64,000 bases of DNA from Phyllobates terribilis. Taxonomy: Eukaryota. The position numbers were made by a program, and so were the translations under genes. The notes beneath the pieces were generated by a model. It did not search any database. It saw only the letters and a program-made list of their open reading frames with translations, and was not told the origin of the DNA. This document shows positions 3,514-55,803 of the stretch, one piece after another (positions within the stretch are counted from its first letter, which is position 1; every line of letters begins with the position of its first letter). The stretch covers positions 1,154,192,001 to 1,154,256,000 of the forward strand of contig NW_027362761.1 in NCBI RefSeq assembly GCF_046119375.1, in the 5' to 3' direction.

Positions 3514-4719
3514 CGCCCCCTGGGCCATATTCTTTAGTGGGAATATCCGGAGCCGGATCAGATGGGGGTTGTAGTCTTCCGAGTGGCTGTGACCCGGTCC
3601 GTGCCCAGGGTGTCAAACTCAGTTGTATGTGGCAGTCCTTACTGATGTTACTAAAGTTCTTTATGTCGACTACGCCACCCGTTGTATTGCGGTCACTATG
3701 GCCGCCGCTGCAGCAGGGTCCGCTGAGGCTGATGGTGTAGGTGCAGCTTGTGATGGTATAACCCCCAACGGTTGGGGTATAGCCTCAGGGGGTCAGGTGC
3801 AGAGGATGGGGGTTGTGGTGGTGCAGCGTAGATGTAAAATGAAGACAGAGTCGGGTTGTGCAGTTTAGGGTATTTACTCACTGCTGATGTTCCGGTCACT
3901 CCAGCTTCAAGTGACCACCCGAGCCGTGCTGCGTCCACCAGGTCCTGGATCCAGCCAACCCCCCAAACAAGTCCGGAGCGTGACCCTGAGCTCTCCTTCT
4001 GTCCTTTCCTCTGGCCGTCCCCACTAGTGATCCACCTAGGTCCAGCTCCCTCGGGCCTTCTGTTGGGAGACCCTTGGCCTTGGGTTCCCTGACCCTCCAC
4101 GTGGTATGCCTTCGGGGTGGATGTGGTGGGTGGCCGTGGCAGACACTGCCCACGGCCTCCGGTCTCTGGCTAGGGTGTGCTTTTGCCCCCACCAGCTTGG
4201 GATCCGGTACCCTTTTGCCAACTCTTCACCCGCTGATGGACTTTGGGTTCTCAGAGTTCCTTTTCTGTTTCCCCCTCTGGGTCTTTCTGGCTTTCTCCTC
4301 TCTCTCTCTCTGGGGCTGCTCTGCTCCTCTTCCTCTGACTTCTCACAGACTGACTGACTCCTCTGCAAAGACTGACCCTGTTCTTTGATGGTGCCCACCT
4401 TATATACACCCTCTATGTGTGAGCTCAGGTGACCAGCACCCAATGAGCTCCTATCTTTACCCAGGCTGCTCCCCCTATCTGCCCCTACACTACTTGGGAT
4501 GTTCCACCCCCCTCCCACTCCAGCCAGGAACAGACTCGGTCGTACCTGCACATTTCTAAGTGGGAGTACCGTCGGTCTGTTCCCCGGAAATGGGATGTAT
4601 GTAGTGCATGCAGCCTACCGAGCTCAGATCCACACTCCATCCTTACCCGGGAGTGGAATATCACACCTCTGGGTTGAGGTGCAATACCCCTGTAGCAGCC
4701 GAATCCTCAGGGTGCTACA
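3514..4719 (-). mobile_element. Solo LTR of the same family as 19840-21058; last few bases hidden in gap
   Basis: Reverse complement starts TGTAGCACCCTGAGGATTCGGCTGCTACAGGGG and ends ...CCCAGGGGGCG; collinear with the CSD-element LTR. Confidence 0.9.
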
Positions 4720-8602: not shown

Positions 8603-9190
8603 TCTCTCTATCTAAAACTGAATCTGTTGAAAACTGAACTCCTTGTGTTTCCTCCCTCTACTTACCTTCCCAAACCCAAATATTGCCATTTCCATGTGGG
8701 GTTCTACCATTACTCCCATGCAGTATGCCCACTGTCTTGGGGTTATATTTAACTCATATCTTTCCTTCACTCCCTATATCTGATCACTCACTCGCTTATG
8801 TCACCTACACCTCAAAAACATCTCTAAAATTCGACCTTTTCTTACCCTTGACTCTGCTAAAACTTTTACTATTGCTCTTATTCATCCTTATCTGGACTAT
8901 TGCTACTCTTTACTACCGTTTACTGAACTCTCCCCCCATTCAATCCATCCAAAAAGCAGTATCCAGGATCATATTTTTCTCCAACTGCTATACCAATGCC
9001 TCTACCCTGTGCCAGTCATTGCACTGGTTGCCAATCCACTACAGAGTCCAATATAAACTTATCTCTCTCACCCATTAAGCTCTCCACAGTTCCCCACCAC
9101 CCTACATCTCCTCCCTCGTTTCAGTCTATCACCTTACCCATGCCCTCCATTCCGCTAATTAACTAAGACTAACATCTTCAATAATCCAAA
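8603..9190 (+). mobile_element. L2 LINE ORF2 C-terminal fragment, part 2
   Basis: LKLNLLKTELLVFP, LHWLPIHYRVQYKLISLTH, typical of L2 C-termini. Confidence 0.85.
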
Positions 9191-9375
9191 CTTTTTTGTA
9201 AATTTATGAAGCTGGAATCCACCCTTTCTTCTAGGAAGAGCTTGTGTGGTTTATTGCTTTTATCTACTCTGATATCTACAAAACAAATGCGCACCAAAAG
9301 TCATCACTATTTTCAGCAAGCAAACTGGTATAGAAGCCTTGATAAATTCTACTCGTAAGTTTATACTGTCTAAAT

Positions 9376-9549
9376 CAGTATTCCACAACTACAGTTCTCA
9401 AGAGCCACCAACAGGCCATGCTTTCAGGATTTCCTTAGTATTACCCAGGTGATAATTACATCACCTGCACAGGCAATAATTCCATCACCTGGGCAATATT
9501 AAAGAAATCCCGAAAACATGACCTTGAGGACTAGAGTTGGGGAACACTG
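9376..9549. mobile_element. 174-bp hAT MITE (also copied, inverted, within 14683-15431)
   Basis: Imperfect TIRs CAGTATTCCACAACT / AGTTGGGGAACACTG; perfect 8-bp TSD GTCTAAAT (9368-9375, 9550-9557). Confidence 0.85.
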
Positions 9550-10589
9550 GTCTAAATCTTTGAGATAATTGGTAAATCTTCCCCATAATTTAGATCAGGC
9601 ATGTTACTAATTTCATATAAGCACTAATTCTAGAGGATCTCTACACACTTTCTGATTCCTCTTTATTTTATTATATTAATAGCTATTAATATATTATTTT
9701 CCCTAGTTCAATACCTGTATTTTCCCTTTAACTGGCCTGGAAACTTTGCATTCACTGAAGCAGTAAAGTCTGTTGCGCTCCAGCATCATAAACAATGGTC
9801 TAGTATTATTAAGGTATGTTGACATTGTTTTATATGCTTAAAGAATATTGGTCAGCCAAAGTTATTTCGCCTCCGGACAACCATTTTTTAGGTCAAAAAC
9901 AAAGACTTTTTCATAACTGAAACTTTGTGTATATATATTTCATTTCAAATACATATGGCAAAAACAATACTGTTGGGGTTATGAGTTATCGATTTTGAGC
10001 TAAATGTCATTTTTCAAAGTCATTATTGACTGGAAATGTCAGCAACACAGAGAAGGCAACTTCTGTTTATGGAGAGTTTTGTTAGGTTCACATTGTTATA
10101 GAGAGAGAGGCATTTATTGATTGCAATCTGCTGAACTGGATGATAGTATGCAACAGCCTATAACACGTCCCTTTATAGAATTTGTTTAACCACACAATGT
10201 AAAAGAGGAAAATCAATGCTGGTCCTACCTTGGTATAATGCAACCTTTGAAGTATTGAGTTTTCGCTCAATTTTATTTGCAGTAAAAATGTCTTATATGG
10301 TATATGTTACCGTCTCTTTGGAGTAATCATGAGACCAGAAGGTGTCATTACAGCTATTATCCATATTTTATGTATGATTATTACATGTCTATTTGGGTTT
10401 CAGTTAAAGAGTAACATAACCTTTCCATTTAAATTTTTTCATTTTTATGCTGAAAATGTAATTTTCATTAATATCGTCAGGGCTGTCATCAGGGCATTAC
10501 TGTTCTTACTGCTGTATGGGGCCTGGTGAACAATAGTAAAGAGCGGGGGCCCAGACCCAATCCAGGGCCCCCTTACTCTTGTGCTTCTG

Positions 10590-14682: not shown

Positions 14683-15431
14683 ACCTTAATAATACTAGAC
14701 CATTGTTTATGATGCTGGAGCGCAACAGACTTTACTGCTTCAGTGAATGCAAAGTTTCCAGGCCAGTTAAAGGGAAAAAATACAGGTATTGAACTAGGGA
14801 AAATAATATATTAATAGCTATTAATATAATAAAATAAAGAGGAATCAGAAAGTGTGTAGAGATCCTCTAGAATTAGTGCTTATATGATATTAGTAACATG
14901 CCTGATCTAAATTATGGGGAAGATTTACCAATTATCTCAAAGATTTAGACCAGTGTTCCCCAACTCTAGTCCTCAAGGTCATGTTTTCGGGATTTCTTTA
15001 ATATTGCCCAGGTGATGGAATTATTGCCTGTGCAGGTGATGTAATTATCACCTGGGTAATACTAAGGAAATCCTGAAAGCATGGCCTGTTGGTGGCTCTT
15101 GAGAACTGTAGTTGTGGAATACTGATTTAGACAGTATAAACTTACGAGTAGAATTTATCAAGGCTTCTATACCAGTTTGCTTGCTGAAAATAGTGATGAC
15201 TTTTGGTGCGCATTTGTTTTGTAGATATCAGAGTAGATAAAAGCAATAAACCACACAAGCTCTTCCTAGAAGAAAGGGTGGATTCCAGCTTCATAAATTT
15301 ACAAAAAAGTTTGGATTATTGAAGATGTTAGTCTTAGTTAATTAGCGGAATGGAGGGCATGGGTAAGGTGATAGACTGAAACGAGGGAGGAGATGTAGGG
15401 TGGTGGGGAACTGTGGAGAGCTTAATGGGTG
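14683..15431 (-). repeat. Near-identical inverted duplicate of 9069-9815
   Basis: Reverse complement matches from CACCCATTAAG (9069) to ATTAAGGT (9815); only difference noticed is a 2-nt homopolymer length change. Confidence 0.92.
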
Positions 15432-18400
15432 CAGTAAGTAATAAAAATGCCTTAAAACATTCTCTCCCTTTCATTATTCTGACATTTGGTAAATATTAAA
15501 AGATATGGTAATCCTAATTAACCTAAAACGGAAAGGTTTATTCTGATTTCATGTCAGATATTGAGAAAAACATGAATATGTGTCTTTTTATATAGTGTAT
15601 GTAAATTTCTAGTTTCAACTGTATGGGGTATTATTCGGTCACTATGTGCTAGTAGGTAATATCTGGTCCGGCCATGGTGTGACAGTATTTGTACCTTGTA
15701 TGTGGTATTATTAGTCATTTTTAGTGTTGAGCGAACATGCTCGACACTGCTCGGTACTCGCCCGAGCATCACGTTACTCGGGATGTTCGGCGAGCACCGA
15801 GCATTTCCGGGTTACTCGGGCGGGAGCTCAGGTCTCCGCCCTGCATGTTTGGCGCTCTTTACAGAGCCAATGAACATGCAGGGATTGCCAGCCAGTCACT
15901 GTAATGCCGCAGCCATGTTGGTTGTGGGCACTACATTGATTGGCTGGCCGCACAGCGTCACCTCGAGTATTTAAAACCGGGCGCCGCCATCTTGGACACA
16001 GACGGCTGGGATCAGACAGTGTAGGGACAGCGCTGCTGATTTAGGGAGAGATATATACTGCAAAATAGTTAGTGTAGGGTCTGTAAAGGCTGCCAGATCA
16101 AACAAACAGTCCTTCTCAGGACTAATATCCATCCCAGATATCAGGCAGGCAGGCTGTATAGGAGACGCAGTGGTTATACCAGCAAACGCTGCATTACAGT
16201 CCTGTGTGCTCCTGTTGCTGAAATTTCTGGACTTAGCTCCAGGTCTCGGGGGCCAGGAAAAATCCTTTTTTTTTATCTAAATCCTCTTTTTTTTTCCTCC
16301 TTCACACTGTACAAATACCCGTCTTATTAACCTTTTGGTGTCCCCCCCACGCCAAAAAAAAAAAAAAAGTGTGTCTGTGACAGTTCAGACACAAATATAT
16401 CTGTTGAAAATAGTCTGGTGTAGGCCAGAGAAACAGAAGTGTGGTTTTGCAGTTCCACGGTTCAAACCTCTGTATTTTCCACTTTTGGGCCATTTGTATC
16501 TAATGGTGTGTCGCTCACTGTTCAGCCGCAAATATATATATTTAAAACAGTCTGGTATCCACCAGTAAATTATAACTGTGGTTTTGCAGTTCCTCGGTAA
16601 AAAATCTCTATTATCCAGCTTTTGTTATTTTTTACGTAAAGAAACACAGTAATAGTTTCTCCCTGATTGTTCAGATTGTTTAAAAGAGTCGGGTGTAGGC
16701 CAGAGAAATAGAACTGTGGTTTTCCTCTTCCACGGTTCTAATCTACTTTTTATTACCCTTTTTCCATTGATAGTGCGAGTGTAAGCTATTTTACTTCCTT
16801 TACAATGGGTAAGGCACGTGGCAGGGGACGTGGAACTGGACGTTCTGGTGATGGTGCGTGCGGAGGACGGGGCCGTGACCATGGTGAAAATGTGCCACAA
16901 CCAACAGCCACATCTTCTCGCTCCCACTTCTTGACCGAATTACTAGGGAAGCACAGAACAACACCAGTATTGTGAACTGATCAGTGTGAACAGGTTATTA
17001 ATTGGATAGCAGATAATACTTCCAGTTACCTGGGCACCACCACCTCCGGTCTGTCTTCCACACGGTCAAATCTTAGTAGCCGTGAGTATCGACCGCATAC
17101 TCCTCCTCACCCTGATGCTCCTTCCTCCCACCATGCCGAGTGTCGTCAGACAGCAACTGATCCCACACTTGGACACTCTGAAGAGCTGTTCACTGGTCTA
17201 TTTCCATATTTGTGCCCCTCGCCTGCTCCGCTTGAAGTGGTGGAAGAGGAGATCCCATGTAGCGATGCCCAAATATTTGAACAGCCATGGCCAGAGGAAG
17301 TCGACGCTGGCAATTTGTCACAAGAGGTGGACGATGACGAGACACAATTGCCACGAAGTGAGGAGGAGGATCGTGGTGCGCAAGTGAAAAAGGAGGAGGT
17401 TGTGGATGATCTAGTAACTGACCCAACGTGGCAGGAGGACACGCAGAGCGAGGCCAGCAGCACACAGGGGGAGGGAGGCAGAGTACCCCAACAGGAAAGA
17501 AGAAGCAGTGTGGTGGCCACACACAGAAGGCAGGCAACAGTTCCCCGTAACACCAACACGAGGGACGTTGCCAGTACAACCTGTAGGTCTTACAGAGTCT
17601 GGAATTTTTTTAAAGACTCTGCTGATAACCCCAAAAAGGCCATTTGTACCACCTGCCAGGCCAGCATCAGCAGGGGTAACAAAACTACGAGCCTGACCAC
17701 CACCAGCATGATCAGGCACATGGCAGCAAAGCACCCGACTTTGTGGGGTGAACCCCAGGGTCCACGACCAGTGTCAGCGGGTGTCACCACTGCTTCTTCC
17801 ACTGTTGTGCGTGCAATACAACCCCCTGTTGTGTGTGCAAGGCAATCCCCTGTTCATACTGCATGCAAAGATGCCCCCTCCTCTCAGTCTTCACTTGTTA
17901 TGGCAGTTTGTCAAGAAACAGCATCAACGTCCACGTCCACGTCCCACCGCAGCGTTCAATTGTCCATATCCCAGAGCTTTGAACGAAAGTGGAAATTCGC
18001 AGCTAACGCCCCACAGGCCACAGTCCTGAATTCGCACATTTCACGAATGCTTGCGTTGGAAATGCTGCCTTTTGGGCTGGTGGAGAAGGAATCCTTCCGC
18101 AACCTTATGGCGGTGGCCGTCCCTCAGTACTCGGTCCCCAGCCGACACTATTTTGCCCGGTGTGCCATTCCCGCACTACACAAGCACGTGTCCCAAAACA
18201 TCTGCCGTGCCCTCAACAACGCAGTTACTGGGAGAGTCCACCTGACAACGGACACATGGACAAGTGCTTGTGGCCAGGGATGGTACATCTCCCTGATGGC
18301 ACACTGGGTAAACATAGTGGAAGCCGGGACCCAGTCGGACCTTGGGACGGAACACAAACTCCGCACACTGAGGATTGCGGGCCCTATGTCAGTCATAGTT

Positions 18401-19839
18401 GCCCCCACAGTGTACAGCTCCTGCGCATCCTCCTCCTCCTCCTCATGTTCAGCCTCCATCTCAGATATCACCACATCAGTTACAAGCTGGAAGCACTGCA
18501 GTACTGCCTCCGCCAAGCGGCAACAGGCTGTGCTGAGACTCATAAGCTTAGGTGAGAAACCTCACACTGCTTGTGAGTTGTGGACAGCTGTGAAATAGCA
18601 GGAAGATCTGTGGCTGAGACCGCTGAACCTACATCCAGGCATGGTGGTGCGTGACAATGGCCATAACCTGGTGGCGGCTCTGAGGCGAGGCGAGATCACA
18701 CACGTACCATGCATGGCTCATGTGCTTAACCTCGTGGTTCAGCGGTTTCTTATATCGTACCCCAAGTTACCAGATCTGCTCGTCAAAGTACGCCGCCTGT
18801 CAGCTCATTTTCGCAAGTCGGCTACAGCTTCCGCCGCCCTTGCTGTGTTGCGGCAGTGTTTGCAGCTTCCATCACACCCACTGGGTGTGATGTCCCCACA
18901 CGTTGGAACTCTACCCTTCACATGTTGCAAAGGATTTGTGAGCAGAAGAGAGCAGTTGTGGAGTACCAGCTGCAACAAGGCCGTCGATATTCAGGTCAGA
19001 CTCCACACATAAGACCTCAGGAGTGGACCTGGATGTCTGACATATGTACCATCTTGACAAACTTTGAGGAGTCCACCAAGATGGTGAGTGGCGATGACGC
19101 CATCATTAGCGTCAGCATTCCACTTGTCTGTCTTTTGAAACGCTCTCTGCAGAGAATTAAAGAGGAGGCATTGCAGCCAGAGTATGATGAGATGGATGAA
19201 GAAGCCATTGCGGTCGATTACACACAGCCCAGCCTCATCTCATCCCAATGTGCATTGGGGGACAATGAGGGAGAGGAGGAGGAGGAGGAAGAACAGGAGT
19301 TTGTATCACGTGCTGTAAATGGTAGTACCTGTACAACTGTCATACCGTCGGTTCAGCGTGGGTGGCCTGAGGACAGAGGGGAGGAGGAGGAGAGCATGGT
19401 CAGTCGTCATCTTGGTGAGTACACGGAAGTCTTGCCCGTTACCAGTATGGCACGCATGGCTGACTTTATGTTACGCTGCCTTAACCGTGACCCTCGCGTT
19501 GTCAAAATGTTGGGTGACAGTCATTACTGGTTGGTGACACTTTTAGACCCCCGCTACAAGGAGAACTTTCACTCTCTTATTCCTGAGGTGGAGAGGTCTA
19601 CAAAAATGGGGCAGTACCAGAAGGCCCTTGCTGCAGAACTGTTAAAAAAATTCCCATCTGAACACGCTAGCAGCAGAGGTCACAGTTCGTTGCCCAACTA
19701 AGGCGTACATGCGAGAGAGACACAACTCCAATCCAGCACAGGCAGGGGAACACTGTCAACGTTCTGGGACAGTTTTCTCAGACCCTCCCGGGGTACTCTC
19801 ACAAGGAGTGGAAAGTTTCAAAAGATGGTGAGGGAGTAC

Positions 19840-21058
19840 TGTAGCACCCTGAGGATTCGGCTGCTACAGGGGTATTGCACCTCAGCCAGAGGTGTGATAT
19901 TCCACTCCCGGTAAGGATGGAGTGTGGAGCTGAGCTCAGAAAGCTGCATGCACTACACACATCCCATTTCCGGAGGGCAGACCAACGGTACTCCCACTTA
20001 GAAATGTGCAGGTACGACCGAGTCTGTCCTTGGCTGGAGTGGGAGGGGGGTGGACCATCCCAGTAGTGTAGGGGCAGATAGGGGGAGCAGTCTGGGTAAA
20101 GCTAGGAGCTCATTGGGTGCTGGTCACCTGAGCTCACACATAGAGGGAGTATATAAGGTGGGCACCATCTAAGATCAGGGTCAGTCTGTGAGAAGTCAGC
20201 CTGTTGTAGTGAAGACTTTGCAGAGCAGTGGAAGAAAGCAGAGGAGCAGAGCAGCCCCAGGCCCAGAGTGAGAGAGGAGAGAACGAAAGACCCAGAGGGG
20301 GAGAAAGAAGGAACTCTGAGAGCCCAAATACAACCACAGGGTGAAGAGTTGGCAACAGGGTACCGGATCCCAAACTGGTGGGGGCTACAGCATACCTCAG
20401 CCAGAGACCGGAGGCCGTGGGCAGCATCTGCCACGGCCACCCACCAAATCCACCCGGAAGGCAGACCACGCATAGGGTCAGGGAACCCAGAGGCAAGGGT
20501 TCGCCAACAAGAGGCCCGAGGGAGCCGGACATAGGTGGATCCCTGGTGGGGAAGGCCAGAGACGAGGACAGAAAGGGAGCTCAGAACCACGCTCCAGAAC
20601 TACTTGGGGGTTGGCCGAGTCCAGGACCTGGTGGACGCAGCGCGGCTCGGGTGGTCACTCAAGGCCGGAGTGACCGGTACAAGAACAGCAGTAAGTAAAG
20701 AACCCTGAACTGCACAACCCGACTCTGACTCTCATTACCATCTTCCCTGCACTTCCACAACCACCATCCTCTGCACCTGACCCCCCTGAGGCTATACCCC
20801 TCCCGTTGGGGGTTATACTACCTAAGCTGCACAAATACCATCAGCCTCAGCGGACCCTGCTGCAGCGGCGGCCGTAGTGACCGCAGTTCAACGGGTGGCG
20901 TAGTCGACATAAAGAACTTTAGTAACATCAGTAAGGACTGCCACACACTGAGCTTGACACCCTGGGCACGGACCGGGTCACAGCCACTCGGAGACTACAA
21001 CCCCCATCTGATCCGGCTCCGGGTATCCCCCAACAACACTGGCCCAGGGGGCGCGTCA
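19840..21058 (+). repeat. 5' LTR (1219 bp)
   Basis: TGTAGCACCC...GGGGGCGCGTCA; by eye 4 substitutions and 1 indel versus the 3' LTR. Confidence 0.96.
20112..20156 (+). promoter_or_regulatory. Putative LTR promoter: inverted CCAAT (ATTGG) and TATATAA; AGTAAA (possible polyA signal) ~20694
   Basis: Motif match and position only. Confidence 0.45.
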
Positions 21059-21062
21059 ACTT

Positions 21063-21081
21063 TGGCGTAGTCGGCAGGATT
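21063..21081 (+). promoter_or_regulatory. Primer-binding site complementary to the tRNA-Ser 3' end
   Basis: TGGCGTAGTCGGCAGGATT, 4 nt after the LTR; complement of ...AATCCTGCCGACTACGCCA (vertebrate tRNA-Ser end recalled from memory). Confidence 0.9.
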
Positions 21082-21275
21082 ACGTGCCCACAACAACCGG
21101 GTACTGCGTGCCTGAAGAAAAGTTCACCGTTACCTTAAAAAGGAGTCTCCTGCCGGTTCCGGAGGGTCCCCGCCATCGGGCCCCATCACAGGTCGTTTCC
21201 CGCCGGTTGTCCGCCATTTGCAGCTTTTTCCCGCCATTTCCAAAGATTTCCCGCCTTGGAAGAGCGGACGCCATT

Positions 21276-23045
21276 ATGGGCGTGCCAGAGGGTGGCAAGA
21301 GGCCACCTCCCATCGTGGGCCAGGTCGAAGAATGGCGCCAAAAGCGGAAACCGCGCCCACCAACAGGGACTGTGATGCTGGAAGTGTCCATCAGCATAAG
21401 AGAACTGCCCCTGGAACTGACAATCACAAAGTTGCCCCGGGACCACCCTAGATGTGGGCGGAGACAGAAGAAGAGAACAAAGATGGGTGTCGCCTGGAGC
21501 AGTCTGGAGAGAGCGCACCCGGAGACAAGACGTCTGGAAGAGAGTCCAGAGAAAACACACCCGGAGATGGAGGGAGAGCCAGGCAGCACCGACCCAACGG
21601 TCAGGAGCCTGATGCGGGTCGCCACTCCAGGCAGCACCGACCCAGTGGTCAGGAGCCTGTTGCAGGTCGCCACTCCAGAAGGCCTGCTGGAGATCCTAAC
21701 ACAGCTCCCCCGAGACCGGGAGTGTGCACAGACTGCGCTGGAGGGCCTCGCACAGAGGTTGGCCCGGGTGCAGCGAGAGACGTTGGCGGAGTGGAGCCGA
21801 GAGATGGCCCAGCAGACCGAGACTCGTCAGCGGAGCACGCCACCCGAGACGAGGAGACAGACCGCCTCTGAGGATGGCGCAGGAGGACTGAAGGCCGGAG
21901 ACGGTGCCGAGAAGGGAGCCGAAGGAATGGAGGCAGGTAAAGGGGACGTCACTACCCCGCAACGGGAAACCGCGTGCCTGCCCCAGCTCCCCGTCGCAGA
22001 GCCCGAAGTACCCCCTGCCGTGCCCGTCGCTGCAACGTCACCGCCGCAGACTAGGCCTCAAACGGAAGCCGCGACCCCTGTGACGTCACACGCCTCGACC
22101 CCGAGCGTGGCCAAGCAGGAAGTACCATCGGCCTGGTCGCAAGGCCTAGTACCCCCGGGCGCCGCAATACCAACAGCGCCCCCTACCTCCGCGGATCCCC
22201 CGGCCTGGTCGCAGGGCCAAGTAACACAGGGCGCCGCCGTTCTTACGGTGCCCTTTACTTTCAAAGTGCCCCAGGCCTGGTCGCAAGGCCTGGTTAACCC
22301 GGGCGCCGCTACCACCACGGCGCCCATAACACCTAAAGTACCGCACCTGGGTGAGGACCTGTTCGCCCAGCATACGTGCCCGGATGGGCAGCCCTTCGTA
22401 TGGCCCCAGGAATACATCCAGCTGGAGCTGCAAAAAGCAAGGGCCATGTGCGAACCCCTGATCCCGGCTCCAAAGCCCATGAAGAGGATCTCGCCCCCGC
22501 TAGAAGAGACCCAGTTTGAGTGGGATCCCACCGGAGAAGACCTTATGGGGTTCACTCAGGAGACTCGGGCAGCCGCAGCGGAGCGTGCAGAGTGCTGCCG
22601 CCAGCAGCTCGAGGTCTTTGAGAGGGAGCGGAGAGAGAGGCGGGTCCGGGAACAACAAGCCCAAATAAGGAGCGCGGAGCAGAAGAGCCGGACCAGGAGA
22701 GACCCCCGTGCAGCGCATGGTCCCCGAACCATCGGGACTGTAATAAAATTTAATCTGCAGCATGGGTGGGGTTTCATCAGGGATCACCGCACCCCAGGCG
22801 ACGTCTTCGTGACCAGGAGAGACGTTGAGTCCCACCTACCGGAGGGACACAGAGGACGTGACCTGTATTTAGGGGACGAGGTCACCTTCACCCGGCACAA
22901 GTGTGCCAAAGGACCCTACGCCCTCCATGTGCATCGCCTGACGGAGGAGGAGCTGCGGTGTGAGGAGGAGCAAGAGGACCCGGACGGGTCTGAACCAGAA
23001 CCTGGAACCAATCACAAAGAAAGAGCAGGAGGACGACGTCGTTGA
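21276..23045 (+). CDS. 589-aa protein (frame open from 21084): predicted helical and Pro/Ala/Thr-rich regions, C-terminal cold-shock domain (22731-22940)
   Basis: IGTVIKFNLQHGWGFIRDHRTPGDVFVTRRDV...LYLGDEVTFTRHKCAKGPYALHVHRL fits CSD pattern G.V..FN...G.GFI......DVFV...G..V.F...KGP.A..V; uninterrupted frame; true start codon uncertain. Confidence 0.85.
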   Translation: MGVPEGGKRPPPIVGQVEEWRQKRKPRPPTGTVMLEVSISIRELPLELTITKLPRDHPRCGRRQKKRTKMGVAWSSLERAHPETRRLEESPEKTHPEMEGEPGSTDPTVRSLMRVATPGSTDPVVRSLLQVATPEGLLEILTQLPRDRECAQTALEGLAQRLARVQRETLAEWSREMAQQTETRQRSTPPETRRQTASEDGAGGLKAGDGAEKGAEGMEAGKGDVTTPQRETACLPQLPVAEPEVPPAVPVAATSPPQTRPQTEAATPVTSHASTPSVAKQEVPSAWSQGLVPPGAAIPTAPPTSADPPAWSQGQVTQGAAVLTVPFTFKVPQAWSQGLVNPGAATTTAPITPKVPHLGEDLFAQHTCPDGQPFVWPQEYIQLELQKARAMCEPLIPAPKPMKRISPPLEETQFEWDPTGEDLMGFTQETRAAAAERAECCRQQLEVFERERRERRVREQQAQIRSAEQKSRTRRDPRAAHGPRTIGTVIKFNLQHGWGFIRDHRTPGDVFVTRRDVESHLPEGHRGRDLYLGDEVTFTRHKCAKGPYALHVHRLTEEELRCEEEQEDPDGSEPEPGTNHKERAGGRRR

Positions 23046-23470
23046 GTACGGTAGTATAGAGACTGTATATAGTTGCCCGTCGGGGCACAGTGAACCGTTG
23101 CTGCTAATATAGTCCCCGTTGGGACCAGAGAACTGAACTGTTAACCCGTGTGTCCCTATTCCCCACTGACCGAGGACTGAGAGCGGTCATCCCTTTCCTA
23201 ATACCTGGCCGAGGACTGAGAGCGGCCATATCCCCTTGTATATAGTTGCGCTTCCTAAAGCGCCCCCTACCGGTTTTATAGGAAACCGTGTTTCTTCAAG
23301 AGACTGTCGCACTTTACCCGGTCACAAGTTGCACCGTGACCGGAGGTACCAGAAGACAAGAATGTTTTTATGAAAAGTTTTATATGATGTTTTATTATGT
23401 TGTTTATGCAAAAATTGTATGTTTTGGTGTTGTTTATATCTTACAGCCCGAGGACGTGCTGTGGTTTACC

Positions 23471-23479
23471 AGGGGGGAA
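23471..23479 (+). promoter_or_regulatory. Polypurine tract
   Basis: AGGGGGGAA directly before the 3' LTR. Confidence 0.85.
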
Positions 23480-24699
23480 TGTAGCACCCTGAGGATTCGG
23501 CTGCTACAGGGGTATTGCACCTCAGCCAGAGGTGTGATATTCCACTCCCGGGTAAGGATGGAGTGTGGAGCTGAGCTCAGAAAGCTGCATGCACTACACA
23601 CATCCCATTTCCGGAGGGCAGACCAACGGTACTCCCACTTAGAAATGTGCAGGTACGACCGAGTCTGTCCTTGGCTGGAGTGGGAGGGGGGTGGACCATC
23701 CCAGTAGTGTAGGGGCAGATAGGGGGAGCAGTCTGGGTAAAGCTAGGAGCTCATTGGGTGCTGGTCACCTGAGCTCACACATAGAGGGAGTATATAAGGT
23801 GGGCACCATCTAAGATCAGGGTCAGTCTGTGAGAAGTCAGCCTGTTGTAGTGAAGACTTTGCAGAGCAGTGGAAGAAAGCAGAGGAGCAGAGCAGCCCCA
23901 GGCCCAGAGTGAGAGAGGAGAGAACGAAAGACCCAGAGGGGGAGAAAGAAGGAACTCTGAGAGCCCAAATACAACCACAGGGTGAAGAGTTGGCAACAGG
24001 GTACCGGATCCCAAACTGGTGGGGGCTACAGCATACCTCAGCCAGAGACCAGAGGCCGTGGGCAGCATCTGCCACGGCCACCCACCAAATCCACCCGGAA
24101 GGCAGACCACGCATAGGGTCAGGGAACCCAGAGGCAAGGGTTCGCCAACAAGAGGCCCGAGGGAGCCGGACATAGGTGGATCCCTGGTGGGGAAGGCCAG
24201 AGACGAGGACAGAAAGGGAGCTCAGAACCACGCTCCAGAACTACTTGGGGGTTGGCCGAGTCCAGGACCTGGTGGACGCAGCGCGGCTCGGGTGGTCACT
24301 CAAGGCCGGAGTGACCGGTACAAGAACAGCAGTAAGTAAAGAACCCTGAACTGCACAACCCAACTCTGACTCTCATTACCATCTTCCCTGCACTTCCACA
24401 ACCACCATCCTCTGCACCTGACCCCCCTGAGGCTATACCCCTCCCGTTGGGGGTTATACTACCTAAGCTGCACAAATACCATCAGCCTCAGCGGACCCTG
24501 CTGCAGCGGCGGCCGTAGTGACTGCAATTCAACGGGTGGCGTAGTCGACATAAAGAACTTTAGTAACATCAGTAAGGACTGCCACACACTGAGCTTGACA
24601 CCCTGGGCACGGACCGGGTCACAGCCACTCGGAGACTACAACCCCCATCTGATCCGGCTCCGGGTATCCCCCAACAACACTGGCCCAGGGGGCGCGTCA
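23480..24699 (+). repeat. 3' LTR (1220 bp)
   Basis: Direct repeat of 19840-21058, followed by GTAC TSD. Confidence 0.96.
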
Positions 24700-29700: not shown

Positions 29701-32163
29701 TGACGCGCCCCCGGGGCCGTGGGGTACTCGATGCCGGGCCGGTCGTTGCTAGGGGAGATGTCACAGTGGCGGTGACCCAGTCCATGACCCAGGGCAGTCA
29801 ATCAAAAAGGGGAATTATTTACAGGGGATTTATAGTTCTTATATATATAGTTCGTGACGCCACCTGTGGCATGCGGCTATATGGAGCCGCCGCTGCTGTG
29901 CAGAACCTCTGGAGCTGATGTTTAGTGCAGCCGAGTTGGTTCAGCTCTCCACAGGCAGAGCTTAGCTCCAGGGCAGAGAATGGTGATGCTGGGCGTTGTA
30001 GTGCAGGGGTGATGGCACAGATAATAATCACAGAGACAGTGGGGTGCAGTCTTCAGGGTCTTTACTCACGGTTGTTGCATTTCAAGTTACAGGTACCAGT
30101 GTAACTTCCCTCGTCGTGCTGCGCTTACTCAGGGAGGGGTTCAGCCAACCCTCAGATATCTCCGGAGTACTTAGCGGGACCCCCTTCTGTGTGTTCTCTC
30201 TCTCTGGCCGTCTCCCTGTGTAGCGCCCCGAGGGTTCGGTTGCTACAGGGGTATTGCACCTCAACCAGAGGTGTGGTATTCCATTCCCAGTTACGGATGG
30301 AGTATGGACCAGGGCTCAGTTAGCTGCATACACCACACACACCCCATTTCCGGGGGACAGCTCTACGGTGCTCCCATTTATATATATATGCAGGCACATC
30401 TGACTATGTCCCTGGCTGGAGTGGGGAGGGGGGAGAGAACCCAGTGGTGTAGGAGCAGAAGGGGACGGTTTCTGGAGCATAGGAAGGAGCTCATTGGTTG
30501 CAGGTCACCTGAGCTCAGACACAGAGAAGCAGATAAAAAGGTGGGGGCCATCTTAGGAGAGAGTTCAGTGTTCTGTGAGAGGAGAAGGCAGGGAGCAGAG
30601 CTGCTGCATGGGCTCTGCTCCCTGGGCAGGCCTAGCACAGAGGCCGGAGCCTGAGGGAAAAGAGAAGAAGGAGATGGAAGGAAAGAGGACAAAAAGAGGA
30701 GTAGAAAGGCTCCAGAAACAAGAAGGCAGAAGGGACCCTAAGAACCCACGAGATATCGGGTGAAGGGTCGGGCAGAATAAGGGTACCGGATTCCCAAGTT
30801 GGTGGAGGTAAATTATCCCTCAGCCAAAGACCGGAGGTCGTGATCATCTATTGGTGCGACCCCCTGCTACACCCGCTAGGAAGGCACCACAAAGGGTCAG
30901 GGAAACGGGCGATAGGTTTCACCAAGAGAAGGCCCGAGGCAGCTGGACAGAAGTGTGGTCACTGGTGGGGCACGAGAGGCCGGAGAAAGGACAGAAGGGG
31001 GTCCTGTGCCATACTCCTGAATTGCCTGGGGGTTGACCGAGCTCCTCACCTAGTGGACGCAGCATGGCTTGGGCAGTCATTCCCTGCAGAAGTGACTCGG
31101 ATAACAACTGTGAGTAAAAGACCCTGGACTGCAACACGTTGTCTCTGTGTTTCTTACCGCGCCAGCACTAACGGTACTGGGACGCACTGCACCACAACCC
31201 CCACCATCTATGCTCACTGCCCTGAGGCTACACTCCTCCCGTGGGGAGTTATACTATTCTCTGCTGCACCCACAATACCAGCCTCAGCGGTCTGCCCTGC
31301 AGCGGCGGTTCACTCTGACCGCAATCCACGGGTGGCGTAGTCAGACATTCATAACTATACTAATAGACTGCCACAGCATTTGGTCTGACCACCCTGAGCC
31401 ACAGGATCGGGTTGCCACTACTACCCCCATCATCACACTGAAGCCCGATTCCGAGTGCCCCACGGCCCACTCACCTGCACCTCATACCTAATGTCCCAAT
31501 CCAGTACCCGCGGGCCTTCTCGGGCGATGTCTGTTCCGTCCCCTGGGTCCTCTATAGCTACCTTCTTGGTGAGACTGATATGAACTGTTGGCTACAGGAC
31601 TTGAAATACTGCAGCCTCCGGTTTCTAGTTGAGTCATAAAGCACTCTGCTAGTTGAGGGACCGGTCCCCTTTGTGTGGCCTGACCCCTCCACCTCCTGGT
31701 GGATTTGGGCGTACGGGTGGCCTCCAGCACTGCCCGTACCCCTGGGGTCCCTTCTTCCGTTCCTGGAGCCCTTCCTGCTCCTCTCCTTCTTCTTCAGTCC
31801 TGGGCCTCTCCTCAGGCCCTCCTCCTGAGCAGAGCTCCTGAAGAGCCTCTGCTCCTAGCACTACTCCTCTCAGACTGATCTGACTAAAACAAGATGGCTT
31901 CTCTATTTATACCTTCCTTTCATGTGCTCCCCTAATCTGCTTCCTCCACCCACACCCACTACATGGTTCCACCCTTCAGCTAGGGACGAGGGACTGTGCT
32001 CTCCCTTAGGAGCAATCTCACCCTGCCCTCCACTGAAGCGGAATGTGTTGGATGCAGGTGTTAGGGTCCCGGGCAGCACTCCCTCCTTACCTGAGAGTGA
32101 GATACCACACCTCTGGGTGAGATGCAGTACCTCTGTGGCGACAGAACCCTCAGGGGCGCCACA
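29701..32163 (-). mobile_element. Divergent solo LTR of the same broad family, split by a second LTR
   Basis: Minus strand TGTGGCGCCCCTG...GGGGGCGCGTCA; perfect TSD TACG (29697-29700, 32164-32167); ~1.2 kb once the insert is removed. Confidence 0.85.
30219..31469 (+). mobile_element. Solo LTR inserted in opposite orientation inside the previous LTR; last ~12 bp lost
   Basis: TGTAGCGCCCCGAGGGTTCGGTTGCTACAGGGG start; collinear with 19840-21058 up to ...CACGGCCCA. Confidence 0.85.
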
Positions 32164-47561: not shown

Positions 47562-49089
47562 TAGTGATGAGCGAGCATGCTTGTTTAACCCTTTCACCGA
47601 GTACGCTCGGATGCTTACCAAGTAGCTTCGGCATGCTCGTATATTATGCTGGAGTCCCTGCGTCTGCATGATTTACAGCTGTTGGACAGCCTCAACACAT
47701 GCAGGGATTGCCTGTTTGTTAGGGAATCCTCACATATGTTGAGGCTGTCTTACAGCAATAAATCATGCAGACGCAGGGACTTGAACATAATATACAAGCA
47801 CGCCAGTGAAAGGGTTAAACGAGTGACTCGCCCCCTGGGCCGTGGGGCACTCGAGACCGGACTTCAGGGCAATGCTGGGAGTAGTAGTGGCGACCCGGTC
47901 CCGTGGCTCAGGGTGGTCAGACCAGTGGTAGTCTGTGATGAGCTGTAGGTAATGTCCGACTACGCCACCCGTGGATTGCGGCTATTATGAACCGCCGCTG
48001 CAAGGCAGTCCACTGAGGCTGATGGTGTGTGCAGCTGAGGTAGTGTAACTCCCCACGGGAAGAGTGCAGCCCCAGGGCAGTGTAGAGGATGGTGGGGTTG
48101 ATGGTGCAGAGAGTCCCAGTGCCGTTAGTGCTGGAGGAGCAAGGAGTACACAGACAACGTACTGCAGTCCAATGGCTTTTACTCACAGTTCATATGCTCC
48201 GGGTCACTTCAGCGCAAGCAGTGACCACCCAAGCCGTGCGGTGTCCACCAGGTGAGGGACTCGGTCAATCCCCAGGCACTTCAGGAGTATGGTTCAGAGC
48301 TCCTTCCTATCCTTCCTTCGGCTCATGCCCCGCCAGTGACCAAGCTTTTGTCCAGCTCCCGCAGGTCTATGCGCGCAAACGTGGGCCCCGTTTCCCGCTG
48401 CCCTATATGGTATGCCTTCCTAGCAAGGTTTAGCAAGGGGTCGCACCAAGTGATGGTCGCGACTTCCGGTTCTTGGCTGAAGATTATTAGCTTCCACCAA
48501 ATTGGGATCCGGTACCCTCTTCTTGCCTGACCCTTCCACCTTCTTGTTCCTGAGCCCTTCTGTTTCTTGGCCACTTCTTTCCCTTCTCCTGTTCCTTCTC
48601 TTCTCCTCCGTTCCTTCTCCTCCCAGGCCCCGGCCTTTTCTCTAGGCCTGCCTCTGAGCAGAGCTCCTACAGAGCCTCTGCTCCCTGTCTTCTCTTCTCT
48701 CTGTACTTCCCTGACAGAACTGGCCCTGATCTAAGATGGTGCCCACCTTTTATACCTCCCTCTAGAACATGAGCCCAGGTGACCAGCAACCAATGGGCTC
48801 CTACCTACGCTCAGGAACCGTCCCCTTCTGCTCCTACATCACCGGGTTTTCCTCCCCCCTCCCCACTCCAGCCAGGGACAGATTCTGTAGTGCCTGCATT
48901 ACTGTCTAATGGGAGGACCGTTGAGCTGTCCCTCGGAAATGGGGTGTGTGTGATGCATGCAGCTAACTGAGCCCTGGTCCATACTCCATCCTTACCCCGG
49001 AGTGGAATATCACACCTCTGGCAGAGGTGCAATACCTCTGCAGCGACCGAGCCCTCGGGGCGCTACACGAGCACGCTCGCTCATCACTA
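47562..49089. mobile_element. hAT MITE interrupted by a solo LTR
   Basis: TAGTGATGAGCGAGC / GCTCGCTCATCACTA; perfect TSD ATTGTTAC. Confidence 0.9.
47824..49067 (-). mobile_element. Solo LTR of the CSD-element family (1244 bp)
   Basis: Minus strand TGTAGCGCCCCGAGG...GGGGGCGAGTCA; perfect TSD CGAG. Confidence 0.9.
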
Positions 49090-50810: not shown

Positions 50811-53800
50811 CTAGATGGTGGCTCGATTCTAATGCATCGGGTATTCTAGAATAGGTATGCGGCCGACGGGGTGCAATTAGCAGAGCGGTGTTTAAATTTT
50901 GCGCCAAAATCGCTGATTGGTCGCGTTCGGCAACCTCGACCAATCAGCAAAGCGGTGTTTAAATTTGGCGGCAATATTGATGATTGGTCGCGGGCGGCGG
51001 CCGCGACCAATCAGCGAACCATGTTAGTGAGGACTGGAGAGCGTGTTTAAATTTGACACCAAAATCGCTGATTAGTCACGACCAATCAGCAGAGCGGTGT
51101 TTAAATTTGGCGCCAATACTGCTGATTGGTCGAGGCCGCCGGCCGCGACCAATCAGCGATTTTGCCGCAAAATTTAAACAACGCTCTGCTGATTGGTCGC
51201 GGCCGTCAGCCGCGACTAATCAGCGACTTTGGGGCCAAATTTAAACCCCGCTCTGCATCGCTCTGCTGATTGGTCGCGGTCGCCGGCCTCGACCAATCAG
51301 CAGAGCGGTGTTTAAATTTGGCGCCAAAATCGCTGATTGGTCACGGGCGGCGGCCGCGACCAATCAGCAAACCGTGTTAGTGAGGAATGGAGAGCATGTT
51401 TAAATTTGGCACCAAAATCGCTGATTAGTCGCGGCCGGCGACCAATCAGCAGAGCGTTGTTTAAATTTGGCGCCAATCTTGCTGATTGTTCGCGGCTGAC
51501 GGCCGCGACCAATCAGCAGAGTGAGGTTTAAATTTGGCGCCCATACTGCTGATTGGTCGCGGCCGGCGACCGCGACCAATCAGCAGAGTGGGGTTTAAAT
51601 TTTGCGCCAATACTGCTGATTGATCTCGGCCAGCGACCGCGATCAATCAGCAGAGCGTTGTTTAAATTTGGCGCCAATCTCGCTGTTTGGACGCGTCTGG
51701 TGTCCGCGACCAATGAGCAGAGCGTTGTTTAAATTTGGCGCCAAGCTCGCTGATTGGTCGCGGCTGGCGTCCGCGACCAATTAGCACAGCAGTGTTTAAA
51801 TGTCGCGGCAAGATCGGTGATTGGTCGCGGCCGCTATTTAAATGTGGCGCCCAAATCGGTGATTGGTCACGGTCAGGATCCGTGACCAATCAGCACAGCA
51901 GTGTTTAAATATGGCGCTAAGATCTGTGATTGGTCGCGGCCGCTATTTAAATGTGGCGCCCAAATCGGTGATTGGTCGCGGGCAGCGGCCGCGACCAATC
52001 AGCAGAGCGGTGTTTAACTTTAGCGCCAAGATCACTGATTGGTCTCGTGCAGAGAGCACGACCAATCAGCGAATCGTATTGGTGAGGAGCGGGGAGCGGA
52101 ATCGTATTAGTGAGGAACGGGGAGAGCCGCTGCCTGTGCGGATACTTCCACTCCGAGAAGCCAGGAGATGAGCGACTGCTCGCAGCAGAAGTATCCCGAC
52201 CCGCAGCGCCGCTCCCCGGTCCTCCCTTCACACCCTAGCCGCTGATGTCCCCACAGTATTCGCATAGTGTGAAAAATCGCTGATTGGTCGCTGGCGCTGC
52301 CCGCGACCAATCACCGATTTGGGCGCCAAATTTAAATATGGGCCGCAACCAATCACCGATCTTGGCTCCACATTTAAACACCGCTGTGCTGATTGGTCGC
52401 GGCCGATATTTAAATTTGGCGCCCAAATAGGTGATTGGTCGCGGGCAGCGCCAGTGACCAATCAGCGATTTTTAACACAAATGTCCGGACCTTTGTAACA
52501 CCATGCGGATACTGTGGGGACATCAGCGGCTAGGGTGTGAAGGGAGAACCGGGGAGCGGAGCTGCGGGTCGGGATACTTCTGCTGCGAGCAGTCGCTCAT
52601 CTCCCGGCTTCTCGGAGTGGAAGTATCCGCACAGGCAGCGGCGCTCCCCGATCCTCACTAATACGATTCCGCTCCCCGCTCACCAATACGATTCGCTGAT
52701 TGGTCGCGCTCTCCGCACGCGACAAATCAGTGATCTTGGCGCTAAAGTTAAACACCGCTGTGCTGATTGGTCGACGATGCTGTGCGCGACCAATCACCGA
52801 TTTGGGCGGCACATTTAAATAGCGTCCGCGACCAATCAGTACAGCGGTGTTTAAATGTGGAGCCAAGATCGGTGATTGATCGCGGCCGATATTTAAATTT
52901 GGCGCCGAAATCGGTGATTGGTCGCGGGCAGCGCCAGCGACCAATCAACGTTTTTTAACACAAATGTCCGGACCTTTGTAACACCATGCAGATACTGTGG
53001 GGACATCAGCGGCTAGGGTGTGAAGGGAGGACCGGGGAGCGGCGCTGCGGTTCCGGATACTTCTGCTCCGAGCGCCCGCTCATGTCCCGGGTTCTCGGAG
53101 CGGAAGTATCCGCACAGGCAGCGGCGCTGACATCCATGCGGCTAGGGCATGAAGGGAGGACCGGGGAGCGGCGCTGCGGGTCCAATTGGTCGCGGCCGCT
53201 ATTTAAATGTGCCGCACAAATCGTTGATTGGTCGCGGACTTGGCCCGCGACCAAAGTTAAACACTACTGTGCTGACTGGTCGCTGCCCGCGACCAATCAC
53301 TGATTTCGGCGCCAAATTTAAATATCGGCCGCGACCAATCACCGATCTTGGCTCAACATTTAAACACCGCTGTGCTGATTGGTCGCGGCCGATATTTAAA
53401 TTTGGCGCCCAAATAGGTGATAGGTCGCGGGCAGCGCCAGCGACCAATCAGCGATTTTTAACACAAATTTCCGGACCTTTGTAACACCATGCGGATACAG
53501 TGGGGACATCAGCGGCTAGGGTGTGAAGGGAGGACCGGGGAGCGGAGCTGCGGGTCGGGATACTTCTGCTGCGAGCGCCCGCTCATGTCCCTGGTTCTTG
53601 CAGCGGAAGTATCCGGACAGGCAGCGGCGCTGACATCCAATTGGTCGCGGATGCTATTTAAAATTGCCGCACAAATCGGTGATTGGTCGGTGTCTTGGCC
53701 CGCGACCAATGAGTGATCTTGGCGCCAAAGTTAAACACTATTGTGCTGATTGGTGGCGGACGCTGACCGCGACCAATCACCGATTTGGACGCCAAATTTA

Positions 53801-54535
53801 AATATCGGCCGTGACCAATCACCGATTTGGGCGCCAAATTTAAATATCGGCCGGGACCAATCACCGATTTTGGCTCCACATTTAAACACCGCAGTGGTGA
53901 TTGGTCGCGGCCGATATTTAAATTTGGCGCCCAAATCGGGGATTGGTCGCGGGCAGCGTCGGCGACCAATCAGCACAATAGTGTTTAAGTTTTGCGCTAA
54001 GATCAGTGATTGGTCGGGTCCGAAGACCGCGACCAATCATCGAATCGTCTTGGTGAGGACCGGGGAGCTGCGCTGCCTGTGTGGATACTTCCGCTGCGAG
54101 AACCCGGGACATAGCGGGCGCTCGCAGCAGAAGTATCCCGACCCGCAGCGCCGCTCCCCGGTCCTCCCTTCCGCATGGAGGTCAGCAGCGCCAGCGGTCC
54201 TTCCGCTGCTACCGGCCGGGAGATGAGCGCCTCGCGCCGCTCATCTCCCAGCTGCATCTCCGTCCCGCAGATGGGTCCGGCGGTCGGGTTCCTTCTGCTG
54301 TTGCCGGCCAGGAGATGAGCGCCTCGCGCCGGTCATCTCCCGGCTGCATCGCCGCTCAGCTCCGTCCCGCAGATGAGCCGCTAACGGCCGCCATCTTTTT
54401 TTAGAAATCCCCCGGCGCTGATTGGCCACTGCCGGACCAATGAGCGACGCGGGATTTCCTGGACAGACAGACACACAGACACACACACAGACAGACAGAC
54501 AGACAGAGACGGGATAAGACGATTATATATATAGA
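50811..54535 (-). mobile_element. Complete non-autonomous Helitron (3.7 kb) filled with CCAAT/TTTGGCGCC satellite
   Basis: 5' A|TC at 54535; 3' CTAG|T at 50811; subterminal hairpin CTCGAT...ATCGGG (50822-50841) just upstream of the CTAG; no TSD; no Rep/helicase ORF. Confidence 0.85.
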
Positions 54536-55803
54536 TGAATTCACAAAAAATAGTACGTTGTACAACTGTAATGCAATGCATGAAAGAATCAGATAACTAG
54601 CAATATCCAAAACCGCCAACCCTCAGCTTGCAAATACCAGGACAGTACAAGAGATGTAGAAGTAATTATGGAGAGGTTAAACTTATCCATAGTATCTGGC
54701 ATATAGTATGGAATTAGCCTTCAAACTGATGAGGCTGAGTGAATCGTGAAATACACTTCAAATGATTAGATACAGGTAGAGTTTTGAACACCTAGAGATG
54801 TCTGGTCACCAGGGAAGATGTATGTGGAGGATTAGGTCTGGAGTCTGGACATACGAATAGGCCTGGATGCAGTCAGAGGTCTGGACACCTGCCAAGGTTT
54901 GGATGCCAGGAAAGATATGGATTCAGGAAAAGGTTTGGATGCTGGTCGAGGTCTGGAGACTTGGTATGGACACAAACAGATGGTTGGACACAGGATGATG
55001 TTTAGCCATAGGCAGAGACCTGGATGCAGAAAAAGGTCTGCATGAAAGGAGAGGTAACCTTACCACCAGGTTCCACTGAACCCATTGTACTATTCTTTGC
55101 ATGCCAAAAGAACAAGGACAATCTCTAACTTTGCTTAAACCTAGAAGTGTCCTAGATCAAGATGAAAGCACAGGAGCACAAACACAGTCATCCAAAATGC
55201 CAGCACAAATCAAAATAATGGGACAGATCCTGCAGACCTGTGGAGAGTGTACCTTCTTTCGGACATGAAAAATTATAAGTGATCAGCTCACCTATTCACA
55301 GATGCAGGTGTGCACGGATCCAAGTTCCAAAGGAAATAGTCCATATAACAAAGGCAGTTGATCCAGCACTTCCAATAAAACGTATATTTTCATTAAAAAA
55401 ATTTCATCCATAAAAAATATATAATTCCTTAAGAAATCCACAGAAACATATGAAAAAGTGTATCATATGAGGAAAAAGTCCCAAAGGAGATGCATTCAAG
55501 GTGTTGGTTGACGCGTTTCGAAGTGATACTTCTTATTCATAGCCTTTCGAACATACCTGGATGTTGAGTAGGTGTACCCATGTCATGATGTCTAACCACG
55601 TCACGGTGTCCTAGACTTTAGGTGGGGAGATAGAAGAGGAGCATGACATGAATACATGATTCTCATTAGTAAACCTTTAGCTAGGCATGTGGACGCACAC
55701 AGTTTAGCCTTTCTTATATATTATTATTATTATTTATTATTATAGCGCCATTTATTCCACAGCGCTTTACATGTGAAAAAAGCTAGACGAATTCATAGTC
55801 CAA

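Follow-up and report, generated by a model that had tools for sequence, protein, structure and literature searches.

LTR retrotransposons of the window

The window, by which we mean the whole 64-kb stretch of DNA that was analyzed, contains one element with two LTRs (element A, 19840-24699) and four further LTRs (B to E; Table 1). Paired LTRs, a primer-binding site (PBS), a polypurine tract (PPT), 4-bp target-site duplications (TSDs), and LTR ends of the TG...CA type identify these sequences as LTR retrotransposons of the Ty3/Gypsy type. The six LTRs are not six independent observations, as all belong to a single clade, within which they amount to four or five subfamily copies. The frame of element A possesses a cold-shock domain (PF00313, E 2e-7, aa 575-641), and no other Pfam family was detected in it. 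No tRNA gene is present within the 64-kb window.

Table 1. Position and properties of the LTR elements and their features in the window.
Feature	Position	Strand	Properties
Element A	19840-24699	+	4.86-kb non-autonomous Ty3/Gypsy element; 4-bp TSD GTAC
5' LTR of element A	19840..21058	+	99.3% identity with its own 3' LTR
AGTAAA, putative poly(A) signal	20694..20699	+	would put the second site in U5
6-bp hairpin	20868..20884	+	ends about 11 nt 5' of the second site
Second tRNA-Ser site, AGA/TGA type	20896..20906	+	11 nt, corresponding to CCA, discriminator, and 7-nt acceptor strand
Variable G-poor linker	20907..20935	+	directly 3' of the second site
Single open frame of element A	21012..23045	+	677 codons from stop to stop; C-terminal cold-shock domain
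True PBS of element A	21063..21080	+	18 nt, tRNA-Ser(AGA/TGA); 4 nt past the LTR end
3' LTR of element A	23480..24699	+	polypurine tract directly 5'; second site 24537-24547
LTR B	3514..4719	-	3' end cut by a stretch of N; second site 3667-3677, AGA type
LTR C	30219..~31468	+	inserted inside LTR E; last bases missing; second site 31333-31342, AGA type
Solo LTR D	47824..49067	-	TSD CTCG; second site 47956-47967, AGA type
Solo LTR E, divergent	29701..32163	-	4-bp TSD CGTA; split by LTR C; second site 29850-29862, CGA type

The Ty3/Gypsy family to which these elements belong is represented in the genome by at least 52,000 exact PBS junctions; the exact junction patterns yielded 47,903 + 1,252 matches of the AGA type and 556 + 2,944 matches of the CGA type, all of them lower bounds. 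Autonomous relatives in the same genome possess the same U5 and PBS and code for a PNMA/zf-CCHC gag, protease, reverse transcriptase (RT), RNase H, and integrase. Three of the four site/PBS groups considered below include passengers that lack pol and carry the cold-shock frame (L508-L517, L526); these passengers have U5 and PBS in common with the autonomous gag-pol elements. The order RT, RNase H, integrase in autonomous members with this U5 and PBS likewise places the family in Ty3/Gypsy. Gmr1-like Gypsy elements are defined by an integrase that precedes RT. Membership in this group was rejected because integrase comes after RT and RNase H in the autonomous relatives (RT 462-621, RNase H 693-824, integrase 961-1129 in the one copy that was scanned). 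Many proteins of frogs and fishes share 59-73% identity with the RT, the nearest named ones being those of poison frogs, followed by other frogs and fishes. In the gag-pol of its autonomous relatives the family is like fish and amphibian Ty3/Gypsy elements with a PNMA-like gag, whereas the window element is devoid of pol and carries the cold-shock frame.

Several other repeats are found in the window. Fragments of a BED-finger, hAT-like transposase (16976-19701) adjoin element A, and two inverted repeats of 749 nt (9069-9815 and 14683-15431), which are 99.6% alike and lie about 5 kb apart, are probably a young DNA transposon. A frame of 367 codons at 55777-56880 resembles, on inspection by eye, the RT end of a Penelope element plus a GIY-YIG nuclease and gave no Pfam match. 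Nested direct and inverted repeats of a 67-bp unit, MITE-like in appearance, occupy 1-1083 and 50874-54536.

The second tRNA-Ser-complementary site

The preliminary description of this locus had reported a partial PBS inside all six LTRs, and each of these motifs is present where it had been placed (starting at 20896, 24537, and 31333 on the plus strand and at 3677, 47967, and 29862 on the minus strand). All six share one aligned position across the LTRs; their distance from the LTR end, given as 150-165 nt, is in fact 144-163 nt (163 nt from the motif start in A, 144 nt in D, and 162 nt in E). The chance expectation per LTR is about 0.001 for a 10-mer and 1.5e-5 for a 13-mer. ARAGORN identified a tRNA-Ser(CGA) gene (L153) and genes for tRNA-Ser(AGA) and tRNA-Ser(TGA) (L427-L431) in the same genome; the latter two have one acceptor stem in common, and the common motif complements both. 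Both motifs thus have a counterpart at the 3' end of a host tRNA-Ser, and the assignment of the divergent motif to a CGA-type tRNA is borne out by its exact match to the tRNA-Ser(CGA) gene of this genome. Complementarity of the two PBS types to the 3' ends of these genes spans 18 nt, and those relatives of LTR E that have a PBS carry the CGA type (L047, L053). Duplexes of the window motifs with their own tRNA reach -18.5 to -24.8 kcal/mol, those with the other tRNA -10.7 to -16.3 kcal/mol, and that of the PBS -36.7 kcal/mol. An Rfam tRNA search gave Lys clusters in both of the two loci checked. A third tRNA-Ser class (L603, C11 ~604.8-605.0 Mb) had 196 pattern matches, and those listed form one tandem array; for the tRNA-Ser class that serves thousands of copies, one gene was found in 18/24 matches examined.

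Across 213 loci, agreement of the site with its own tRNA at positions 1-11 is 83-100% in every one of the four groups, the exception being position 10 of CGA group 1 (63%; 19 of 52 copies mismatched); positions 1-6 served as the search anchor, and their match rates are hence biased upward. In the same loci, positions 12-13 match in 76-94% in the CGA types and poorly in the AGA types, and positions 15-16 in only 0-17%. The match ends after 11-13 nt, and eleven nucleotides correspond to CCA, the discriminator, and the acceptor strand. For a true PBS we required a match to the 18-nt tRNA complement that adjoins the LTR end, and the second site is too short to qualify. Position 11 of the CGA type follows the 3' strand of the tRNA (97-100%) and not the 5' strand, the two strands forming a G-U pair there. 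A scan of the LTR and the first 400 internal nt recovered conserved complements to 8-mers of the tRNA 3' end only and to no other part of the tRNA.

The motif had been expected to be better conserved than the adjacent LTR sequence. This holds for the sequence just 3' of it, which is far less conserved, and fails for the 7 nt that precede it, which are equally conserved and not complementary to the tRNA. A conserved block that takes in the 7 nt preceding the tRNA match would suit a DNA-binding-protein site resembling the PBS by chance, or a decoy for 3' tRNA fragments; PBS sequences are targets of 3'-tRFs as well as of KRAB zinc-finger proteins. We nevertheless regard such a role as very unlikely. 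The decoy function that had been suggested is disfavored because the site is 12-18 kcal/mol weaker than the PBS, making it a poor competitor, and because it is devoid, as we infer, of the part with which the seed of a tRF would pair. A change to the complement of a second real tRNA, apparently twice, would in turn be unexpected of a protein site.

Upstream of the site lies a hairpin with compensatory changes at three of its six pairs in 44 subfamily copies (23 cells, 0 of 500 shuffles, a result inflated by sequence relatedness), and these pairs tolerate G-U on the plus strand; a different hairpin was recognized by eye at the same place in group 2. The linker has a G fraction of 0.02-0.14, compared to 0.22-0.30 in the flanking U5. 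AGTAAA precedes the site by 150-260 nt in 199 of 213 loci, whereas downstream of the site no hexamer is conserved; the site is hence probably located in U5. In many subfamilies, AGTAAA overlaps a splice-donor-like GTRAGT (20690-20699 in the window, and homologues), which is absent in others; this overlap could suppress polyadenylation in the 5' LTR.

Predicted folds show the site as mostly paired, with an unpaired probability of 0.1-0.6. A type-specific intramolecular partner of the site was rejected, as the own motif was best in 21 of 54 representatives and the swapped one in 33. A predicted long-range helix of 5 bp connects U5 upstream of the hairpin with the LTR end (20846-20850 with 21047-21053 in the window; columns 13-17 and 278-282 of alignment A1); it is 98% paired, with one-sided changes only. 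At the quasi-palindrome with which the second site begins, one and the same 11-nt deletion or short replacements recur in several subfamilies (L663-L665, L674, L676; L655, L661, L667, L675).

Coupling to the PBS, primer switches, and rewriting of the site

We located the site by its type-neutral flanks, typed it by positions 7-10, and measured its coupling to the PBS by sampling rather than by a genome-wide count of a single pattern. Among 221 loci with a 5' LTR and PBS, 210 were concordant and none was AGA/CGA-discordant; three were ambiguous, six had no site, and two carried a PBS for a third tRNA. The 161 distinct loci comprised 102 AGA/AGA and 50 CGA/CGA combinations (two ambiguous, five without site, two with the third-tRNA PBS), and group 2, with 60 loci and other spacers, comprised 30 AGA/AGA and 28 CGA/CGA combinations (one ambiguous, one without site). 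Discordance was absent even in 30 loci picked for spacers suggesting it, and a genome pattern search gave no match to a CGA-type PBS in the commonest downstream context of the AGA lineage. No third lineage-wide type was detected in 11 matches, in 20 of 215 plus 20 chosen further, or in 10 matches. A repeated two-base variant of the site is mostly one LTR copied inside another repeat, and occurs also in three other backgrounds.

These data substantiate a co-variation with the true PBS, which had been named as a check. The two findings named beforehand as speaking against the motif, a lack of any matching host tRNA 3' end and a motif neither more conserved than its surroundings nor co-varying with the PBS, were not obtained. 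The second site was found in none of 24 copies from two unrelated families with another serine-type PBS, which we take to be Ser-GCT. In a metagenome scan of 120 stretches, five had the exact PBS and none of these an upstream copy, two of the five having less than 130 nt upstream; one CGA-type PBS match outside this genome (L341) had no upstream copy.

The coupling samples consist of first-listed matches, mostly from contig C1, with many near-copies (about 30 of element A), and the tree therefore weighs more than the counts. Group 1 alone requires one change (156 rows), and its AGA/AGA copy L261 is 0.04 substitutions per site away from the CGA clade. The masked U5 tree that includes group 2 has two changes (61 chosen rows; 0% of the bootstrap trees with one), while a single AGA clade is not rejected by it (p=0.27). 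In the tree of the cold-shock frame (51 rows thinned from 54), two joint switches are forced and one AGA clade is rejected (AU p=0.012). The gag tree (35 of 71 rows) contains no AGA member of group 2 and is uninformative on the second switch, because the second AGA group is without such a gag. A second switch could also be simulated if recombination had carried over a U5-PBS block, but the two AGA groups differ in U5 sequence and in their hairpins; two switches are a small number. That a multi-base change of this kind is hard to explain by drift is supported by p values of 4e-10 to 1e-4 for five named changes (Jukes-Cantor; branches 0.04-0.78).

A PBS for a third tRNA-Ser is carried by 11 scattered copies (L631-L641), ten of which keep the CGA-type site, while one is without a site in that 5' LTR. 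As ten of these 11 copies retain the CGA-type site, the PBS can be rewritten by primer capture without a change of the site in the same round, and the existence of these copies indicates that such PBS-only captures are able to integrate. That they have not spread is expected from rarity alone. In-register joints, in which a full 18-nt PBS runs into position 19 of the site, were met unsought four times (L115/L203, L204, L422, L294); a search for this joint then gave nine matches from six events, four of them new, i.e., eight separate events in all. Joint cases with a visible site carry AT at positions 17-18, which is present in only 23 of 213 loci; this fits annealing of the plus-strand end at the site. 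LTR growth across the PBS was observed in L204/L647, L422, L649, and L650, and collapse in the form of reciprocal deletions in L292 and L293. A duplication that later collapses would leave the site overwritten, the state seen in L294, where the site has been extended to 18 nt in the 5' LTR and not in the 3' LTR. Sites of this length do not persist: GG at positions 15-16 is found in one of 213 loci, and the full 18-nt match in the site context has five genome-wide matches, one of them an overwritten site.

It had been considered that the motif is a relic of LTR growth across an old PBS, in which case recurrent templated rewriting from the PBS would keep the match of a functionless sequence. Growth, collapse, and the overwritten 5' LTR of L294 are all in keeping with this idea, as is a CA 4-5 nt before the site, the arrangement found at the LTR end. 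The relic thus accounts for the origin and rewriting of the site; it explains neither its retention nor the cut at 11-13 nt. With one in 213 loci and five matches genome-wide, set against tens of thousands of elements, 18-nt matches arise too seldom to account for 86-100% agreement at positions 7-10 (63% at position 10 in one group) while the next 25 nt diverge. Moreover, the sequence before the site is unlike an LTR end, local similarity exceeding that of shuffles in only one of three LTRs. This reading is already weakened, and we consider it quite improbable.

Use of the motif as a true second priming site, which would make a shorter minus-strand strong-stop DNA, would be in line with its start at TGG and the CA that most subfamilies have 4 nt before it; L294 could be a product of such priming, and L677 (five copies of one duplicated block) combines a full 5' LTR with a 3' LTR that ends at the CA before the site. 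However, the flanks of L677 are mismatched and without TSD, and its end point was forced by the search pattern. A TSD was found for none of the 22 matches to LTRs stopping at the site (the LTR start was found for 12 of them and the L668 block; the pattern covers about one quarter of the flanks and part of group 1), the scarcity of 18-nt matches speaks against routine priming as well, and a GC-rich hairpin is positioned just upstream. Priming from the site, as put forward in the preliminary description, is therefore highly unlikely. In several copies, the PBS runs 30-50 nt into tRNA sequence, as if plus-strand synthesis had passed the usual 18-nt stop (L151, L154, L155, L424, L426, L432-L434, L446). 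Tandem repeats of 33-34 nt, made up of the PBS and the first internal bases (L642-L644), are likely products of plus-strand slippage.

The main rival to docking of a tRNA at the site places the working copy in minus-strand DNA, where the complement of the site would mimic a tRNA end, pair with a plus-sense PBS (that of the partner RNA, or the one at the 3' terminus of plus-strand strong-stop DNA), and assist or park strand transfer. Such pairing demonstrably occurs, as the eight separate joints between the PBS and position 19 attest, and a second template is suggested by L651 and L647, whose added segment is not identical to the first. At the distal CpG, we counted 39 G-to-A and 10 C-to-T variants; this is the reverse of what G-U pairing with the tRNA would favor and fits G-T wobble in the minus-strand geometry, although the excess may reflect only weaker constraint near the helix end. 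Coupling to the PBS type would be explained equally well. On the other hand, the products (nine and five matches) are rare aberrations rather than the normal outcome, the established model of LTR reverse transcription has no step requiring such a mimic, and the hairpin, with pairs that tolerate G-U on the plus strand, would be left unexplained. We regard this alternative as unlikely.

Putative docking of the primer tRNA and comparison with known systems

Judged from sequence comparisons in one genome, the site is real, non-random, and probably functional. Its conservation over the length of the acceptor stem, its coupling to primer identity, and its retention despite mis-transfer point to selection; mis-transfer products represent a visible cost, and yet the site is present in all four groups. 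That it is functional and tied to the sequence of the tRNA or the PBS appears very likely. For the more specific proposal of a second docking site in the RNA leader for the 3' end of the primer tRNA-Ser, with hand-off to the PBS, we see about an even chance. If located in U5, the site would exist in one copy, at the RNA 5' end, and only the acceptor strand of the tRNA would be engaged in pairing. One tRNA would be unable to bind the site and the PBS at once, because both need the same tRNA nucleotides; it would instead pass on to the PBS, where seven extra nucleotides would serve as a toehold and provide about 12-18 kcal/mol more pairing energy. Alternatively, the tRNA might stay at the site as a second, unextended molecule that aids primer selection or packaging.

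Once a new primer has been captured at the PBS, rare templated rewriting may follow, in which the 18-nt plus-strand primer copy would anneal at the site and the duplication would collapse; selection would then keep positions 1-11 and lose positions 14-18. Combined, these steps would amount to two-step primer loading: the acceptor strand would be caught at the U5 site and handed to the PBS, primer identity would be written twice, and the tRNA would change only when a slip of reverse transcription rewrites the site from the new primer. This scenario is tentative, and we hold it to be possible rather than probable. If true, it would constitute an undescribed step in the initiation of LTR reverse transcription and a mechanism that fixes primer switches. 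How LTR elements change their primer tRNA is stated to be unknown (PMC10886601).

Two tRNA-binding sites are also described for Drosophila gypsy by Gabus 2006 (PMC1635307): a 5' and a 3' PBS, the second of 11 nt, as is the frog site predicted here from sequence, and situated near the RNA 3' end, where it was unneeded for priming in their tests. The second gypsy site is the partner of the anticodon and T stems, which lets one tRNA bridge both sites, whereas the frog site and the PBS use the same tRNA nucleotides and are 127-201 nt apart. The bipartite PBS of the Ty3/Gypsy element Ty3 (PMC11381356) has an 8-nt 5' PBS completed by 3'-end segments. The frog element is like Ty3 in its extra complementarity to the tRNA outside the priming site and differs from it in a full 18-nt PBS and in the lack of conserved complements to other tRNA parts in the LTR and first 400 internal nt. 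A bipartite PBS of the Ty3 or gypsy kind, which is defined by pairing with different parts of the tRNA, was therefore rejected, as the site targets the same nucleotides as the PBS.

The Helenus and TRIMp3 elements (Kojima 2024, PMC10886601) are non-autonomous animal elements with 4-bp TSDs and a sense tRNA-like polymerase III promoter in the LTR. The window element resembles them in these TSDs, in its non-autonomy, and in the tRNA-related sequence of its LTR. It is unlike Helenus because the frog site is an antisense 11-mer, no tRNA gene is present in the window, and a cold-shock frame exists; membership in this group, to which a tRNA-like polymerase III promoter in the LTR and a lack of coding capacity belong, was rejected for the latter two reasons.

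In HIV-1, PBS-only switches revert, and stable primer switching needs a change in a second site, the PAS or U5 A-loop (PMC3185550). The frog site likewise represents a second determinant tied to primer identity, a conclusion here read from evolution, and its co-change with the PBS on a primer switch is a PAS-like property. By contrast, the HIV-1 PAS and A-loop pair with the T-arm or the anticodon loop and not with the CCA end, and this was shown by experiment. As far as nucleotide sequence can tell, the frog site extends primer-template pairing in a new form that is PAS-like in primer coupling. Our search of the open literature found no description of such a second site, and a prior note may exist. 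The additional tRNA contacts known from LTR elements and retroviruses involve regions of the primer other than its CCA end; a design that offers this end a second site, at the length of the acceptor stem and switched together with the PBS, differs from these. Among its tens of thousands of copies, the family includes natural intermediates: captures at the PBS alone, duplications in register, one overwritten site, and two joint switches that became fixed.
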